DNA of 64,000 nucleotides from an archaeon (GCA_043821585.1 JBDRCQ010000002.1:49658-113657), one strand, 5' to 3'; positions 6,746 to 26,592 are shown, numbered from the stretch's first letter. Numbers and translations are program-made. Notes: generated by a model not told the origin, from the letters alone.

Positions 6746-9700
6746 TCATTGAGTGTTATTGGCATGCTGGTTGAAACCATATGGGGGATTGATCGGGGTT
6801 GTTTTTAACTCTTTCTTTCTGAATAGTCTCAGGCGCCATCCAACTATTACTATTACAACTACGCCAATCCATGCAACGTTTGCCATTGTAAAGACGAATG
6901 CTTCCTTGAGTGTTACACCAAAGACTTCTGCTTCTTGACCTTCATTCCCAGACGTTGGCAATTCGGGGTCATCATTCCCGTTGGATCCGGTTTCTTGGTC
7001 AGACAAACAATTTATTGTCGTTAGGGGTTTTTCCATTTCTATTACGCAGTTGTTTAGGTCAATGCAGGATCTTGTTTTTGTGCCTCCAAGGCATTCAGAC
7101 CACTCCTCACATTGCCAGCTAGAAACGCAGCCGGAGGACTCGTCATGGTTGTTGCTCCCGCTGTTTCCGGGAGGATTGCAGGTATTCTCTGCATATTGTT
7201 CTGGGCAGTTTGGTGCTTCTTCGCAGTCAGGGTCTTCGCAATCTATCAGTGTGTCGTTATCTCCATCGATTTCATCATCGCATATCATCTCTGGGCCGCA
7301 TCCTACAACTGAGCATTCAGACTATTCTCCTGTTGTGCAAATCATTGTGGAGTTTTCGCATTCTCCTGCCTGACTTTCGCAGGAAGCGTTTTGCATGTTT
7401 ATGCAGGAGCAGCCCTCATCTATTTCTCCGTCGCAGTTGTTGTCGTACCCATCACAAGGCTCCGGGCCGAATTCGCAATAGCAATGGTTATTTATGGATG
7501 CAACAAATGAATCTACATCAAAACTATTTACCGCACCATCTCGGTTTGCGTCGGTGAAGTTACACCAGTCTGTTTCGGAGTTGTTGAGGTAGCGGCAGTC
7601 TTCATGGTCTGCGAAGGCAGTTAAGGGATCTATGTCCACCAGGTCTATTTCTCCATCGCCGTTGAAGTCGAGTAAACAACTATGTTCCCAACAACCGAAA
7701 TCTTCTAGATCTGTTTTTCCGTTACAATCGTTGTCTATTCCATCGTTGCATATCTCAGGTTCAGGTATTAACACATCGCAGTTTGTCCAGCCTTCTTCGG
7801 AGCAGACTTTTTCTCCGTAACAAATACCGTAAATGTTCTCTTCTGAGCAGTTTTTCTTTATTGCGTCGCAATTTTCTTCAGAGCAGTCTTGTAACCCGTT
7901 GCCATTGTTATCGAATTCGTCTGTGCAAGAGATTTCTTCTCCGTATTCACACAACGCAAAAGGGTTTATGCTTGCTAATTCGCCGTCGCAGTCAGGGTCT
8001 TGGCAGTCTGTGAGCCCGTTCTGGTCGTTGTCTACATTATCAAAACAAATTGTTTCTGTTAAGCAGTCTCCTGAACAGGATTCTCCGTACGTACAATAAC
8101 CATCTGCGCAGTCGCAATGTGGTTCTGATTGGCAGTCTTCGTCTTCACAATCTGTTTGACAGTCTTTGTCGTTGTCTAATCCGTCGTTGCAAGAGGTTTC
8201 TGGTTCTGGAAGAAGGCATGAGCCTCCGCAGTCTGTTTCTTCTTCGTCACCGTTTCTGCACATGTCGGAGCAGGAGGTTCCACAGTCTGGATCTTCTAGC
8301 TCGCTGCAGAATAGGGGACAGACTTGGTCGCAACCTGTGGGGTGGCAGGTTTCTAGAATATCTGGGAGGTAATTTAGATTTTGGTCTGTGTAGTCGTTAA
8401 ATGAAAATCTTTCTAGGTGGGAGGCATAGGCCTCATTTGTTCCGACTACAACATCCCCATTTTCATTTGCAGTTATCCCTCCGATTCTCATCCTTGGAGA
8501 CTCTTCGTCCCACTGATTCCATGAGAATATGTAATCGCCTTCTTTTGTGTAGGCAGATATTTTTTTGCTTCCAGGGTCTGTTATATAAATAATCTCTCTA
8601 TTCTGGTCGACGGTTAGTCCGAACGGAACTTCAAGTTGTCCTTCGCTTGTCCCGAGTATTCCAAACTCAAGGATGAAATTTCCTGAAGAGTCTATTTTTT
8701 GGATGCGCCCGTTTCCACCATCTGCCACAAATACATCTCCCGTTGAGTTGTCTACGTCAATTCCCTGTGGGAAAAGCAATTGCTCGGTCCCAGAGCCTTT
8801 TTCTCCGATTACTCTTATGAGGGAGAATCCGCTGTCTGGAGTGGTTATGTTGTATTGATAGATTCTGTGGTGGCCCCCGTCTGATATGTAAAGCAGCCCT
8901 CTTTCTTCATCTACTGCCACGTCCGATATGAACCTATAGCTGTTTGTGATGCTTTGTGGATATATTCGTGGGGGTGCTACTCCTGGCGGTTTCCCGCTAT
9001 AACTTTGGTACCATAGGTTTTGGTTTTTGTATGAGAGGTTGTAAACACTTACCCTTCCAGAATAAATCGATCCTGCTCCACCTCCAGTTGTTCTGTCTGC
9101 CACATACACTTTTCCTCTTTTGTTGTCAATGTCTAATCCTATTGGAAACGAAAAGTAATCCCAAAATCCGCCCCAGAAATATCCATCTGTTTGGTCATCG
9201 GTTTCTTCGTAATGTATCAGGACCTTGGCTACGACTTGCCCTGGGCTGAATAGTATGCTATCGTTATCGTAGGCTAAGTGGCCTGAAATGATCGGTCCGT
9301 AGGAACTATCTTCCATTTGGTTGATCCACTTGTTGCTTAGAGACATCTGGCCTGTTTCTAGAGGGATTACTCCTTGCGGTGGCTGAACTGTTGCTAACCC
9401 GTTTAATTGAGCTGTTGAGTATCCCATGATAGAACCATTTTCCAGGGTTATTATCACAGGCTTCCCATCTATGAATTCTAATGCTTCAATTGTAGTGTTT
9501 TCGCTTCCAGTTTCAAACAGTAATCTTTTTTCCACCCAAGTCTCGCTCTTTTTTTCTATTAAGTACACTTTGTTTTTTACGGCGAAGACTAACCAGATGG
9601 CTGAAGGAGTCTCTTTTATTGCGTATTTTTGAGTGACTAGGTGTTCAAAATTATTTGTTATCCATCGGTTTTCACTTTTTACGTATGTTGTTTCTCTTAG

Positions 9701-10870: not shown

Positions 10871-11062
10871 TTATGCTTTCTTTACGTTAACTGCTTTTGG
10901 ACCTTTTTCTCCATCTTCTACGTCAAATGTAACTTCGTCGTTTTCATTCAGTGTCATGCCTTCTTCTAGTGCTGACTGATGAACAAAGACGTCTTTTCCA
11001 TCTTCCGCAGTGATGAATCCAAATCCTTTCGATGCGTTGAAAAACTTTACTGTTCCTTTCAT
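10871..11062 (-). CDS. cspA: cold-shock domain protein
   Basis: [17 protein letters not shown] (RNP1) and DVFVH (RNP2); GGAGGT RBS upstream of ATG 11062. Confidence 0.95.
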
Positions 11063-11373
11063 TTTTACCTCCCGGTATTGTTGTATCAAAACAGTCTAAC
11101 TTTTGGCTAGAATGTTCTAACGTTTATAAGAAAAATTATTCACTTTTAAATGCTTCTATTTCCCTCCGTTCTGTTGAAAACCTCTTTTTGGGGATTGTTT
11201 GCACCCTCTAGCCCGCCCAGAAAGGATTTGTTATATTATTTGAAAATGTTTTGTAGCTTGATGTTATTAGGCAGTTCGTTTTTTAGATTTGTGTCGCGTG
11301 GTGGGGATTATCTGGTTTGAAAGATACATTTTTGTGACTAAATTATTATAAACTCTTAGAACGGTTGTATTTT

Positions 11374-11652
11374 ATGGGTACGGATAATTTTAGGGTTTCA
11401 AATCTTTTTTTTGAGCCGACGGGCGTGGTGAAGGACGTGAATATAATGGGGGTTTTTGTAGGCTTTGTTCGTATGGGCGGAGATGTAATGGATAGAAAAG
11501 TTTATCTGCATACTGCTGATGAAGTGTCTCGTTTGTTACAATCGGGTGGGGTTCCGGCGTGCGAGATTGGGCGCGCGATAGATATTTATAATCAAATGGG
11601 AAGTAGTCTGGAAGGAGAGGGGTTTGAAAGGTATAATATAGTTACTGGTTAG
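11374..11652 (+). CDS. hypothetical protein
   Basis: TTATAAAC TATA-like box at 11346-11353 at leaderless distance from ATG 11374; no recognised motif. Confidence 0.45.
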   Translation: MGTDNFRVSNLFFEPTGVVKDVNIMGVFVGFVRMGGDVMDRKVYLHTADEVSRLLQSGGVPACEIGRAIDIYNQMGSSLEGEGFERYNIVTG

Positions 11653-12539
11653 TTCTCTTTTTTGTAAGAATCTTCTTGTTCCTGTTCTAACATTTCCTGT
11701 TGTGCTGCGATTTCGGCTTCTTTGCGCATTTGTTCTAACTCTGAGGCAAACTTTTTGTTGTGAGTTTCTTTCATCCAGACGTAGATTTCTTCTAAGTGTT
11801 TTTCTTGTTCGAGCAGGACTTTGTGCTGGTTGTCTAGGTGGAGAAGTGGGACGAAATGGTTGACTCTTTCTTCGCTAAGGTGATTTTTGTCCCCGAGAAG
11901 TTCTGAAAAGGCCACCGGGTGTTCGCGGTCTGAAGTGAAGAAACCTTTAAGTTTGCTGTAGACTGTTTTTACCATGTCTTTTAGGTTGATGGTTCCTTTT
12001 GGGATTGAGATTGCGGTTTCGATTTCTTGTTGTTTTGCCGTTACAACTTTTCTTATTCTTCTGTTTTCTGTGGTTATCGCCTTGCCTAACGCAGAGAGTA
12101 ATTCCTGGAGAGATACTTTTCTGTTTCTTGGTAGTGGCGTTCTTTGAACTAGGTCTGGAATTTCATCTTCAAGCTCGATGCGTTCTTGTTCGTATCTTTT
12201 GTTTTCTTTTTTGCCGAAGAGAATGTCATCTAATGACGGAAGGTATTGGTTTAGGAGAATTTCGGATTTTATCCTTAGCAGAAGAGCTGCTGCGAAAAGG
12301 ACTTTTGATGAAACAAACAAGTTTGCCTCTTCGAGTTCATGTAGTTTTTCTAGATATCTGTTAGTTAGTACTACCAGATCGATGTCCCAAGGGTCGAGTT
12401 GTTCGGAGTTGATTAAGTCGAGAATTATGGCCTGCCAACTAAGTTGGTCTCCGAAAAGTAGGCCGTGGATCTGTTCTTGTCCTACCTTGTCTTTTTTTGG
12501 TGTTTCCCGAATCACCTCAGGGGCCTGAGAATCAGTCAT
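11649..12539 (-). CDS. scpA: segregation and condensation protein A (kleisin)
   Basis: LDPWDIDLVVLTNRYL, SSKVLFAAALLLRIKSEIL and C-terminal FVPLLHLDNQHKVLLEQ motifs. Confidence 0.9.
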   Translation of the reverse strand: MTDSQAPEVIRETPKKDKVGQEQIHGLLFGDQLSWQAIILDLINSEQLDPWDIDLVVLTNRYLEKLHELEEANLFVSSKVLFAAALLLRIKSEILLNQYLPSLDDILFGKKENKRYEQERIELEDEIPDLVQRTPLPRNRKVSLQELLSALGKAITTENRRIRKVVTAKQQEIETAISIPKGTINLKDMVKTVYSKLKGFFTSDREHPVAFSELLGDKNHLSEERVNHFVPLLHLDNQHKVLLEQEKHLEEIYVWMKETHNKKFASELEQMRKEAEIAAQQEMLEQEQEDSYKKEN

Positions 12540-12624
12540 GCCTTTATTTGGAAGGGATGGTTTAAATTAGTTGCGTAGGAAATGTTTTTAAAGGGGAATT
12601 TGTATTGTAGCGTGTTAAACGAAC

Positions 12625-12638
12625 CTTGGTATACCAAG
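12625..12638. promoter_or_regulatory. perfect 14-bp palindrome, candidate operator
   Basis: CTTGGTATACCAAG between the divergent scpA start and the promoter at 12696. Confidence 0.35.
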
Positions 12639-12695
12639 ATATACCACTGTGGAATTGTGCGTTAACACTGTTCCCATTGAGAAGTTACAACAAAC

Positions 12696-12711
12696 CGAAA
12701 AGTTTAAATAC
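12696..12711 (+). promoter_or_regulatory. archaeal BRE/TATA promoter with no downstream ORF
   Basis: CGAAAAGTTTAAATAC, nearly identical to the promoters at 29551 and 33452. Confidence 0.7.
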
Positions 12712-12731
12712 CACTTATGACTCTATTTATT

Positions 12732-12958
12732 ATCACCTCTTTTTGCCCGGGAGAGGACGTTTAGTTCATCTATTTAGCTTGGATTAAACCTCCCCTCCAA
12801 GGGTTAATCAAATCTTCGATTTGATCAGACTACTGCATGCTCGATGAGCTCGCATGAGGGTTTAAATGAATTGACGAATTTGTTGAAGCATTCTTCAAGA
12901 TTGTTCAAAAGTCCTTTGATAAGGCAGAACGATATATCCGAGTGAAAAGGGAGGTGAT
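12732..12958 (+). ncRNA. candidate structured non-coding RNA, family unknown
   Basis: Starts 36 nt after the BRE. 13-bp terminal helix 12732-12744/12946-12958 (11 Watson-Crick + 2 G-U). Several internal hairpins; no ATG-initiated ORF. Confidence 0.55.
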
Positions 12959-13072
12959 TGCATATTCTTTAGAATTAGGACATTAATCTCGTCTAAAATC
13001 GAGCACTGTTGTCCTCACGTTCATTTGTCTAGAATTAGGAGCATGACGACCTCTTATGCTCGGGATTAGGCG

Positions 13073-13450
13073 TTAGTTTAAACAGATTGGAGCAACTGGC
13101 ATTGCACGGATTCTTGTGATCGGTCGGATGATTTGATGTTGGGTCATTTGTGTTGGTTTGGAGTATTGATAAGGATATTTGACTACAATTACTTGCGGTT
13201 GTTTTAACTGGATTGGAGCTTCTTGGATTTGGACTATTTTGGTTACTGTAGGGCAGTATGACGCGTCACAGTAGGTCCTGTATGCATTGAATGGCGTATA
13301 GAAAATGTCTGCTTTTGGGGCGAAGTCGGGGTTGAGATACATCGAGTCTTCATAGTCATGTATGTCGTTTGAGGCTTCTATGTAGTATGAGGCTGAAACG
13401 AAACTAGAAAGTAGAATAAGTGAGAATAGCGCCAATATTGTTTTGTTCAT
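13073..13450 (-). CDS. secreted hypothetical protein
   Basis: Signal peptide MNKTILALFSLILLSSFVSA. Confidence 0.6.
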   Translation of the reverse strand: MNKTILALFSLILLSSFVSASYYIEASNDIHDYEDSMYLNPDFAPKADIFYTPFNAYRTYCDASYCPTVTKIVQIQEAPIQLKQPQVIVVKYPYQYSKPTQMTQHQIIRPITRIRAMPVAPICLN

Positions 13451-26563: not shown

Positions 26564-26592
26564 CGGAAGGTTTATATATCAATTGATATATA
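26564..26592 (+). promoter_or_regulatory. BRE/TATA promoter overlapped by a perfect 20-bp palindrome
   Basis: CGGAAGGTTTATATAT, 36 nt before ATG 26600; palindrome TATATATCAATTGATATATA at 26573-26592. Confidence 0.65.

Follow-up and report, generated by a model that had tools for sequence, protein, structure and literature searches.

On sequence grounds, the + strand of the analysed archaeal DNA from position 12732 to about 12958–12972 (possibly to about 13014) encodes a structured non-coding RNA that belongs to no described family. The window, by which we mean the whole stretch of 64,000 nt, belongs to a 1.22-Mb metagenome-assembled genome (MAG) of the order Pacearchaeales (phylum Nanoarchaeota; Pacearchaeota/Woesearchaeota) that is 87% complete. 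An undescribed structured RNA with its own promoter had been proposed at this position (the original prediction), and the absence of an Rfam 15 match, strong covariation and single-copy conservation all bear the proposal out. The 227-nt RNA taken there as the unit is a real structured RNA. The unit kept in evolution, however, is its 76-nt 5′ domain, and the 227-nt RNA is a minority long variant.

The RNA gene lies in a 533-nt intergenic gap (12540–13072) between scpA and a convergent ORF. The features that define the gap, the promoter and the 5′ domain are the following.
11649–12539, − strand: scpA, leaderless, with its own TATA near 12561–12568
12669–12691, + strand: conserved upstream DNA element TGTTCCCATT-GAGAAGTTACAAC, about 4–26 nt upstream of the BRE
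12695–12710, + strand: BRE/TATA promoter CCGAAAAGTTTAAATA of consensus type, predicting +1 at A12732
12732–12744, + strand: 13-nt 5′ tail AUCACCUCUUUUU, beginning at the promoter-predicted +1, A12732
12745–12807, + strand: P1 hairpin, GCCC / GGAGAG / GUUUAGUU ... loop ... AGGGUU, defined by covariance model and covariation
13073–13450, − strand: ORF for a secreted protein of 125 aa, convergent with the RNA gene

The promoter CCGAAAAGTTTAAATA matches in consensus and spacing those of four leaderless genes in the window, and that of an EF-1alpha-like gene elsewhere in the genome. The promoters at 26564, 28242, 29551 and 33452 do place an ATG 36–37 nt after the C of the BRE, and the same spacing from C12696 leads to A12732, where there is no ATG. 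These observations of the original prediction were confirmed, and all the sequence elements that it listed are present where it placed them. The BRE/TATA upstream of the RNA gene is kept in all homologues. Homologues at levels from genus to class have TGTYMCYAYT variants of the upstream element at a constant spacing to the BRE, even where scpA is not adjacent, and the element at 12669–12691 is probably a regulator site or an extended promoter element of the RNA gene. As a general hallmark of stable-RNA promoters it was rejected, being absent before the RNase P, SRP and tRNA genes. Only one other clear gene in the genome stands behind such a block of upstream element and promoter. The gene of a 261-aa acidic helical protein of unknown function (C6:48744, − strand; MAKKQPKDDPQDQLKR...) has a promoter and upstream element TGTTACTACTTGTGAGTTATACAGAAACCGAAAGGTTTAAATA that are nearly those of the RNA gene, with which it may be co-regulated.

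In public genomes, with protein identity down to 55%, the RNA gene is located just upstream of scpA on the opposite strand in 19 of 21 scpA loci, and in two other lineages (L032 and L101) it is upstream of scpA on the same strand. This adjacency, together with a 3′ domain of the long form that looks aptamer-like, is what a cis-acting leader or riboswitch of scpA or of the downstream gene would have in its favour. Against such a leader, scpA and the RNA gene are oriented divergently in the window and the 19 loci, scpA with a leaderless promoter of its own. Here the gene downstream is convergent, and in many relatives the gene in that place, judged by eye, appears to be a convergent rps27ae-type zinc-ribbon gene; downstream genes vary from genome to genome, and no ORF follows the SD-like strand. 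The orientations of the neighbouring genes thus argue against a cis-regulatory leader, which we regard as very improbable and largely refuted. Further upstream, 1.6 kb from the RNA gene, the − strand of the window encodes a CspA-like cold-shock protein of 72 aa (10871–11089). CSD proteins are binders of pyrimidine-rich single strands.

The conserved unit comprises the first 76 nt, that is, the tail AUCACCUCUUUUU and one covarying hairpin ending in AGGGUU. The tail is followed by a hairpin base of N-CCC, a purine, a 6-bp stem, a variable upper stem and loop, and the return strand N-A-GGGUU. Sequence varies freely outside the tail among 98 aligned sequences, the hairpin included, while the hairpin base CCC...A-GGGUU is invariant. 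Tail positions 3–13 are identical in 98/98 sequences save for two alignment gaps at position 11, an invariance that is partly circular because the covariance model used to collect homologues (R1) selects somewhat for the tail; position 14 is free to vary. The first 8 nt of the tail (AUCACCUC) are the 3′ end of the genome's own 16S rRNA (GGAUCACCUCCU), so the match to the 16S anti-Shine-Dalgarno (anti-SD) reported earlier for the 5′ end is substantiated. Beyond these 8 nt the tail runs on as U5, able to pair with any purine run. Short forms leave the tail unpaired in their consensus fold. Another occurrence of the tail sequence at C8:22049 was considered as a second RNA and rejected, since its TATA is wrongly spaced and a homologous hairpin is missing.

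Model R1 matches window positions 12732–12807 with 90.1 bits. RNAalifold on 27 sequences gave 18 pairs, 11 of them with compensatory changes. Across the 98 sequences, 93.6% of P1 cells are paired and double changes occur in 15 of the 18 pairs; the covariation score of 0.521 compares with 0.181 for shuffles (none of 500 reached it) and does not exceed 0.156 when the structure is slid. Homologues, including those beside scpA, conserve base pairing and not a reading frame. A leaderless mini-ORF starting from AUC can be dismissed, as the RNA 5′ end has no ATG, the putative third codon positions never vary in the 98 sequences, the second position of a codon (14) is free, and the frames differ between lineages.

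Sequence conservation was followed by BLAST against 60 relatives and then with R1, which was built from one order only; E-values of such home-made covariance models are rough. By BLAST, all sampled genomes, whether of the genus, the family or the order, retain the promoter and the first ~75 nt; only some also retain the stretch beyond about 12806. R1 found the RNA in 193 of 201 genomes of the order (74/76 of high quality; 98/100 genera), with a copy number of nearly always one. It also matched 145 of 301 genomes of the class at E ≤ 0.01 and 167 of 251 in a phylum-wide sample at E ≤ 0.001 (166/250 of high quality); these class and phylum counts are probably underestimates, as the model was trained on a single order.

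Outside Pacearchaeales the RNA takes a form of ~50 nt with the same tail, CCC, a short stem and GGGUUUA, the stem usually being capped by a UUCG or GCAA tetraloop. These tetraloops are meaningful on the + strand only, which supports an RNA gene. Of the 20 loci inspected at class level, about half have a TATA that starts 29–32 nt upstream of the first A, so the tail would be the 5′ end of the transcript there; the remaining loci have a 50–95-nt leader ahead of the tail. Such leaders offer little masking of the tail in other orders, a moderate complement being present in only 3 of 7 leader-bearing loci. Two or three tandem units occur in some genomes, and in its own genome the candidate sequence is single-copy. 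The MAG contains two slightly different 16S 3′ ends (C9 and C11; GGATCACCTCCT), both intact, as well as two copies of RNase P RNA (C11, 122.8 bits; C13, 109.3 bits) with two tRNA-Phe genes beside them. For the two 16S ends and the two RNase P copies, it may hold two related strains or a duplicated segment.

Known RNA classes do not account for the locus. A cmscan search against Rfam 15 returned no match in the 64 kb at gathering score, as the original prediction of a novel RNA entailed, and at E ≤ 10 only two chance matches on the − strand (nuoG, 13 bits; sroH, 11.3 bits). The RNase P and SRP signatures said to be lacking are indeed lacking at the candidate, and the genome has genes for both RNAs at other places. 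Archaeal RNase P RNA (RF00373) matches C11:25594–25916 and C13:1640–1962 and nothing at the candidate at E ≤ 10; AAAGUCC and GGCAGAAC in the 3′ domain lie partly within helices of variable sequence across homologues. The sole genome match of archaeal SRP RNA (RF01857) is C9:70764–71025 (86.9 bits), and the 5S rRNA gene (RF00001) is at C3:6684–6798. ARAGORN finds no tRNA in the window and 37 tRNAs elsewhere in the genome. A degenerate housekeeping RNA, which had been left open, is thereby excluded. Nor is there support for the suggested ribozyme: no Rfam ribozyme matches, the core is a plain hairpin, and the upper part of the universal core is exchangeable for a UUCG- or GCAA-capped stem. In the literature searched we did not find the tail sequence or anything relevant on non-coding RNAs of DPANN archaea and Pacearchaeota, and an RNA-seq small-RNA survey of N. 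equitans lists no comparable RNA.

Several of the tRNA genes found by ARAGORN, among them C6:42279–42351, C5:44290–44361, C8:24774–24846 and C6:45046–45117, have a near-copy of the gene's 5′ end and a hairpin in front of them, which suggests non-canonical introns or misplaced 5′ ends. A tRNA-Ile gene (C8:21028–21213) has a 112-nt intron according to the Rfam alignment.

The + strand of 12732–12958 folds with an MFE of −74.0 kcal/mol (z = −3.99; 0/200 shuffles as good), and the − strand folds less well (−64.3 kcal/mol, z = −3.56). That the − strand also folds well and that the 227-nt stretch is bounded by a 13-bp terminal inverted repeat would suit a reading in which there is no RNA gene, and the locus is the end of an element such as a MITE, a site acting at the DNA level, or a diverged copy of a housekeeping RNA. 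A MITE with terminal inverted repeats fails on copy number, since the genome holds a single full copy and most relatives also have just one each, and the interior hairpin covaries; single copy per genome likewise excludes the element end that had been considered. The compensatory changes, the UUCG/GCAA loops, the two G-U pairs specific to the + strand, the housekeeping RNAs located elsewhere and the missing Rfam match all contradict this reading, too. Given copy number and covariation, we consider it refuted and next to impossible.

The window carries the long form of the RNA, in which further elements follow the 5′ domain.
12807–12884, + strand: variable middle part with three window-specific hairpins (12807–12825, 12827–12863 and 12865–12884), in the MFE fold
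12856–12867, + strand: BRE/TATA-like GAGGGTTTAAAT within the middle part, with a TATA-like box at 12861–12867
12885–12947, + strand: accessory 3′ domain, defined by model R2 and covariation
12889–12893/12940–12944, + strand: 3′-domain helix CAUUC/GAGUG, with covariation
12900–12906/12927–12933, + strand: 3′-domain helix AUUGUUC/GAACGAU, with covariation
12913–12924, + strand: 3′-domain hairpin CCUU-UGAU-AAGG, with covariation
within 12885–12947, + strand: 3′-domain loops, namely the internal loop UUCAAG/AUAUCC and the loop AAAAGU
12946–12958, + strand: SD-like closing strand AAAGGGAGGUGAU, which forms a 13-bp helix with the 5′ tail
12959–12972, + strand: U-rich stretch UGCAUAUUCUUUAG, with a U-rich box at 12962–12970 after the closing strand
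12978–13014, + strand: hairpin GGACA-UUAAU-CUCG-UCUAAAAU-CGAG-CAC-UGU-UGUCC, recurring in relatives

The middle part is conserved in neither length nor sequence, and in long-form homologues the spacer from the 76-nt 5′ domain to the TTCTTCAAG box of the 3′ domain ranges from 17 to 247 nt. The BRE/TATA-like sequence at 12856–12867 was considered as an internal promoter for a separate 3′ domain. It stands at a promoter-like distance here but not in other long forms, and is therefore probably incidental; the spacer of 17 nt in one homologue makes co-transcription of the 5′ and 3′ domains the rule. A block of hairpin and BRE/TATA that is 82% identical over 39 nt to window positions 12834–12872 is present in a 445-nt gene-free gap between uS2-like and enolase-like genes (C9 ~8020–8470; L002 1452–1897). 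A UUCG-capped hairpin and a ACCUCUCU stretch lie behind the block, and the gap has no Rfam match. Possibly the gap contains another unknown RNA gene whose promoter module is related.

The 3′ domain has the consensus NCAUUC/GAAUGN, an internal loop UUCAAR/NUAUCC, a second helix, an AAAGU loop, a small hairpin and GGCA. An alignment of 23 sequences has 93.3% of its cells paired and double changes in 11 of 13 pairs, with a covariation score of 0.640 against 0.216 for shuffles (0/500 reach it) and at most 0.126 when slid. Model R2 matches C2:62542–62604, that is, window 12885–12947. In the family it was found in 17 of 151 genomes, representing 16 of 150 genera (~11%) and always single-copy, and about a fifth of the collected homologues have the long-form 3′ domain. 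It is directly downstream of the 5′ domain in the 7 genomes for which the 5′-domain position is listed, and on another contig than the listed 5′ match in genome G180. A free-standing motif was rejected, as every genome with the 3′ domain also has the 5′ domain.

Folded without constraints, the window RNA has all covariation-supported helices in its MFE structure. Among the helices drawn in the original prediction, the 13-bp closing helix (12732–12744/12946–12958) and the stems of the 3′ domain are in this fold with covariation support, and the G-U pairs U12740–G12950 and U12741–G12949 are, as claimed, specific to the + strand, becoming A-C on the − strand. Its other helices fared less well. 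The ATCAAATC/GATTTGAT helix is in the MFE fold but sits in the non-conserved middle part, and of CATGC/GCATG, in the same part, three of five pairs are in the fold with the frame shifted and the rest are absent. GAGGAC/GTCCTT (12753–58/12911–16) and GATTAAACC/GGGTTAATC are incompatible with the covarying helices; TTGAAG/CTTCAA is displaced by the conserved CAUUC/GAGUG; and the alternative helix CTTGGA/TCCAAG lacks covariation (score 0.190 vs 0.207 for shuffles).

In the window RNA the tail is held within a helix of about −16 kcal/mol. Sites able to pair with 12 nt of the tail, G-U allowed, number 13 on both strands of the 1.22-Mb genome, and one of them is the closing strand AAAGGGAGGUGAU; by our arithmetic about 0.002 such sites are expected in 300 nt downstream. 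An (A)GAGGUGA(U) strand complementary to the tail follows the 3′ domain in 19 of the 25 long forms tabulated. A downstream duplex with the tail of −12 kcal/mol or stronger is found in 22% of 72 homologues, against 2.9% of controls. Repeated supply of the complementary strand in cis makes tail pairing a relevant state, in which case the tail of the window RNA would be masked and the 3′ domain would be a candidate control element. An SD-sequestering regulator, as the original prediction had it, is not what the structure presents, because what the SD-like strand of the long form ties up is the anti-SD-like tail of the RNA itself, and not a gene's RBS.

The 3′ end of the RNA may lie beyond 12958. 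Judged from the sequence, transcription most likely terminates in the U-rich stretch 12959–12972, and many long forms have an AUUCU(U/A)-like box after the closing strand. The hairpin 12978–13014, with loop GUCUAAAAU, is unique to the locus within the genome and may be a 3′-terminal module of the same transcript. The same type of hairpin (loop GUCUARAWU, 3′ GCAC) stands directly after the 5′ domain in several homologues of the genus and family, and a T-run lies behind the hairpin in several of these. Downstream of the RNA, window 12978–13072 holds additional hairpins with a fold z-score of only −1.7. The direct repeat TAGAATTAGGA occurs at 12970–12980 and 13031–13041, and there is a hairpin GAGCAUGACGACCUCUUAUGCUC at 13039–13062.

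As to function, we tentatively favour an anti-SD mimic that acts in trans by pairing with purine-rich SD sites and that masks itself in the long form of the window, a reading that we hold to be quite possible though short of probable. The tail would serve as a seed that mimics and extends the anti-SD end of 16S rRNA, with AUCACCUC followed by the U-run. It would pair with purine-rich SD sites (RRRRR-GAGGUGAU) of the minority of mRNAs led by an SD, and sites so paired would be masked from 30S subunits in the manner of RBS-masking sRNAs. The hairpin and the U-tracts would provide stability and possibly a binding site for an Sm-like protein. In the long form the seed would be auto-inhibited by the target-like strand in cis, and the 3′ domain could be an element controlling its release.

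The architecture of the RNA is like that of a trans-acting sRNA, in that a single-stranded 5′ seed that does not vary is followed by a stable hairpin that does, with U-rich flanks. The conserved seed is complementary to AAAAAGAGGUGAU-type RBSs, a property of RBS-masking sRNAs, and strong RBSs of relatives resemble AAAAGGAGGUG, the complement of the tail. In its own genome an SD core stands at the right distance in ~20% of genes, compared with a background of 8%, and a TATA at leaderless distance in ~25%. SD-led mRNAs thus form a distinct minority class, and it is this subset that an anti-SD mimic would act on.

No conserved specific target emerged from the two candidates tested, scpA and a FlaI-like ATPase, which is weak negative evidence. 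The − strand mRNA of scpA contains GAGGUGAU, a perfect 8-nt complement of the tail, at codons 8–10 (window 12511–12518), 21 nt past the start codon. This site is absent from 20 orthologues, where the mean rank among control windows was 0.40, and is therefore probably due to chance. The FlaI-like ATPase was rejected, too, since the match at its RBS is a generic SD only. No site pairing with the tail was found in the 5′ leaders of 16S. GGAGGTGA occurs 27 times on both strands of the genome, about the random expectation by our estimate, and long SD motifs are not enriched.

Two further points speak against the mimic. The tail of the window RNA would rarely be free unless the helix is opened, and the 13-nt seed is kept phylum-wide, far deeper than the seeds of usual regulatory sRNAs. 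Such depth would better fit a partner in translation or ribosome assembly than mRNAs, which makes a decoy of the 16S 3′ end and an RNP scaffold serious rivals.

As a protein decoy, the tail would imitate the single-stranded 16S 3′ end and bind, titrate or deliver a factor in small-subunit maturation or initiation, for instance the KH protein Pno1/Dim2 or the D-site endonuclease Nob1, so that ribosome maturation is coupled to the level of the RNA. The GGAUCACCUCC region is a recognition site of archaeal Dim2 and Nob1. Besides the phylum-wide invariance, the 8-nt identity with the organism's own 16S 3′ end agrees with a decoy, and the two or three tandem units of some genomes are reminiscent of a protein sponge. 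The order of elements, on the other hand, is reversed, the tail preceding the hairpin where 16S has helix 45 and then the tail; a U-run follows the 8 nt instead of CCU-3′OH; and the tail of the long form is double-stranded, which would block a single-strand binder. We see the decoy as possible but rather unlikely.

To a similar degree doubtful is a constitutive RNP component or scaffold, in which the tail, the U-tracts and the hairpin base would be a platform for a protein such as an Sm-like protein and the resemblance to the anti-SD would be incidental. The housekeeping-like distribution, single copy and strong promoter are as expected of such a component. The invariant positions extend beyond the tail to the stem base and flanking UU, and U-rich motifs are found in the tail and, in Pacearchaeales, in the apical loop. 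A scaffold is at odds with the recurrent evolution of a complementary strand in cis, which argues for Watson-Crick pairing of the tail, and with the 8-nt identity to the anti-SD, which is unlikely to be incidental, though it was noticed post hoc.

A wider version of the anti-SD mimic can be imagined, which we would not bet on. The RNA would be a phylum-wide housekeeping RNA, a free-standing copy of the anti-SD. It would compete with 16S rRNA for SD-led mRNAs, or titrate factors of the 16S 3′ end, and in this way decide how much translation is SD-led and how much is leaderless. The sensor-like 3′ domain and the pseudo-target of the long form would make this competition switchable.

Nanoarchaeota (Pacearchaeota, Woesearchaeota and relatives) are uncultured, genome-reduced archaea, and we found no lineage-specific RNA of theirs described in Rfam scans and the literature searched. 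A single-copy RNA gene that is kept phylum-wide in genomes of 0.5–1.2 Mb is very likely important to the cell. As the end of this RNA copies the anti-Shine-Dalgarno, there is a concrete testable idea, namely global regulation of translation or control of small-subunit maturation. What this analysis adds is the long form, with a 3′ domain that covaries and a closing helix, together with the ~50-nt form of the class, the tandem units, and the counts across the phylum. Models R1 and R2 would let the RNA gene be annotated in hundreds of MAGs.

Compared with the 16S 3′ end, the tail is identical over AUCACCUC, and both are single-stranded beside a hairpin. The candidate is predicted to be an independent transcript of 50–240 nt and not a part of rRNA, the 16S genes being intact at their 3′ ends. 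The hairpin is 3′ of the tail in the candidate and 5′ of it in 16S, and the tail continues as U5 in the former and ends as CU-3′OH in the latter.

The bacterial sRNAs RsaE/RoxS, RybB and OmrA/B have C-rich or 5′-terminal seeds, and C-rich seeds pair with G-rich SD sequences. The candidate shares their layout of a 5′ single-stranded seed, a variable stable hairpin and U-rich flanks. It differs in belonging to another domain of life, in its much deeper conservation, and in that its seed is the organism's own anti-SD, whereas the bacterial seeds are merely C-rich. To our knowledge, no Hfq is found alongside the candidate RNA, unlike the bacterial sRNAs.

The closest functional precedent, by analogy, is sRNA41 of M. 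mazei, for which masking of RBSs within polycistronic mRNAs is described (PMC5867862, citing Buddeweg et al. 2017). Like the candidate, whose promoter and transcript are predicted, sRNA41 is portrayed there as an intergenic archaeal small RNA with its own promoter and an anti-SD-like pyrimidine sequence, for which pairing with the RBSs of SD-led cistrons and repression of translation are proposed (PMC5867862). Going by that description, the two RNAs have no homology in sequence or structure. sRNA41 is a genus-level RNA with defined targets (ACDS operons), whereas the candidate is phylum-wide with an invariant tail and no target found in the two tested. And unlike sRNA41 as described in that source, the candidate has a long form that would mask its own seed.
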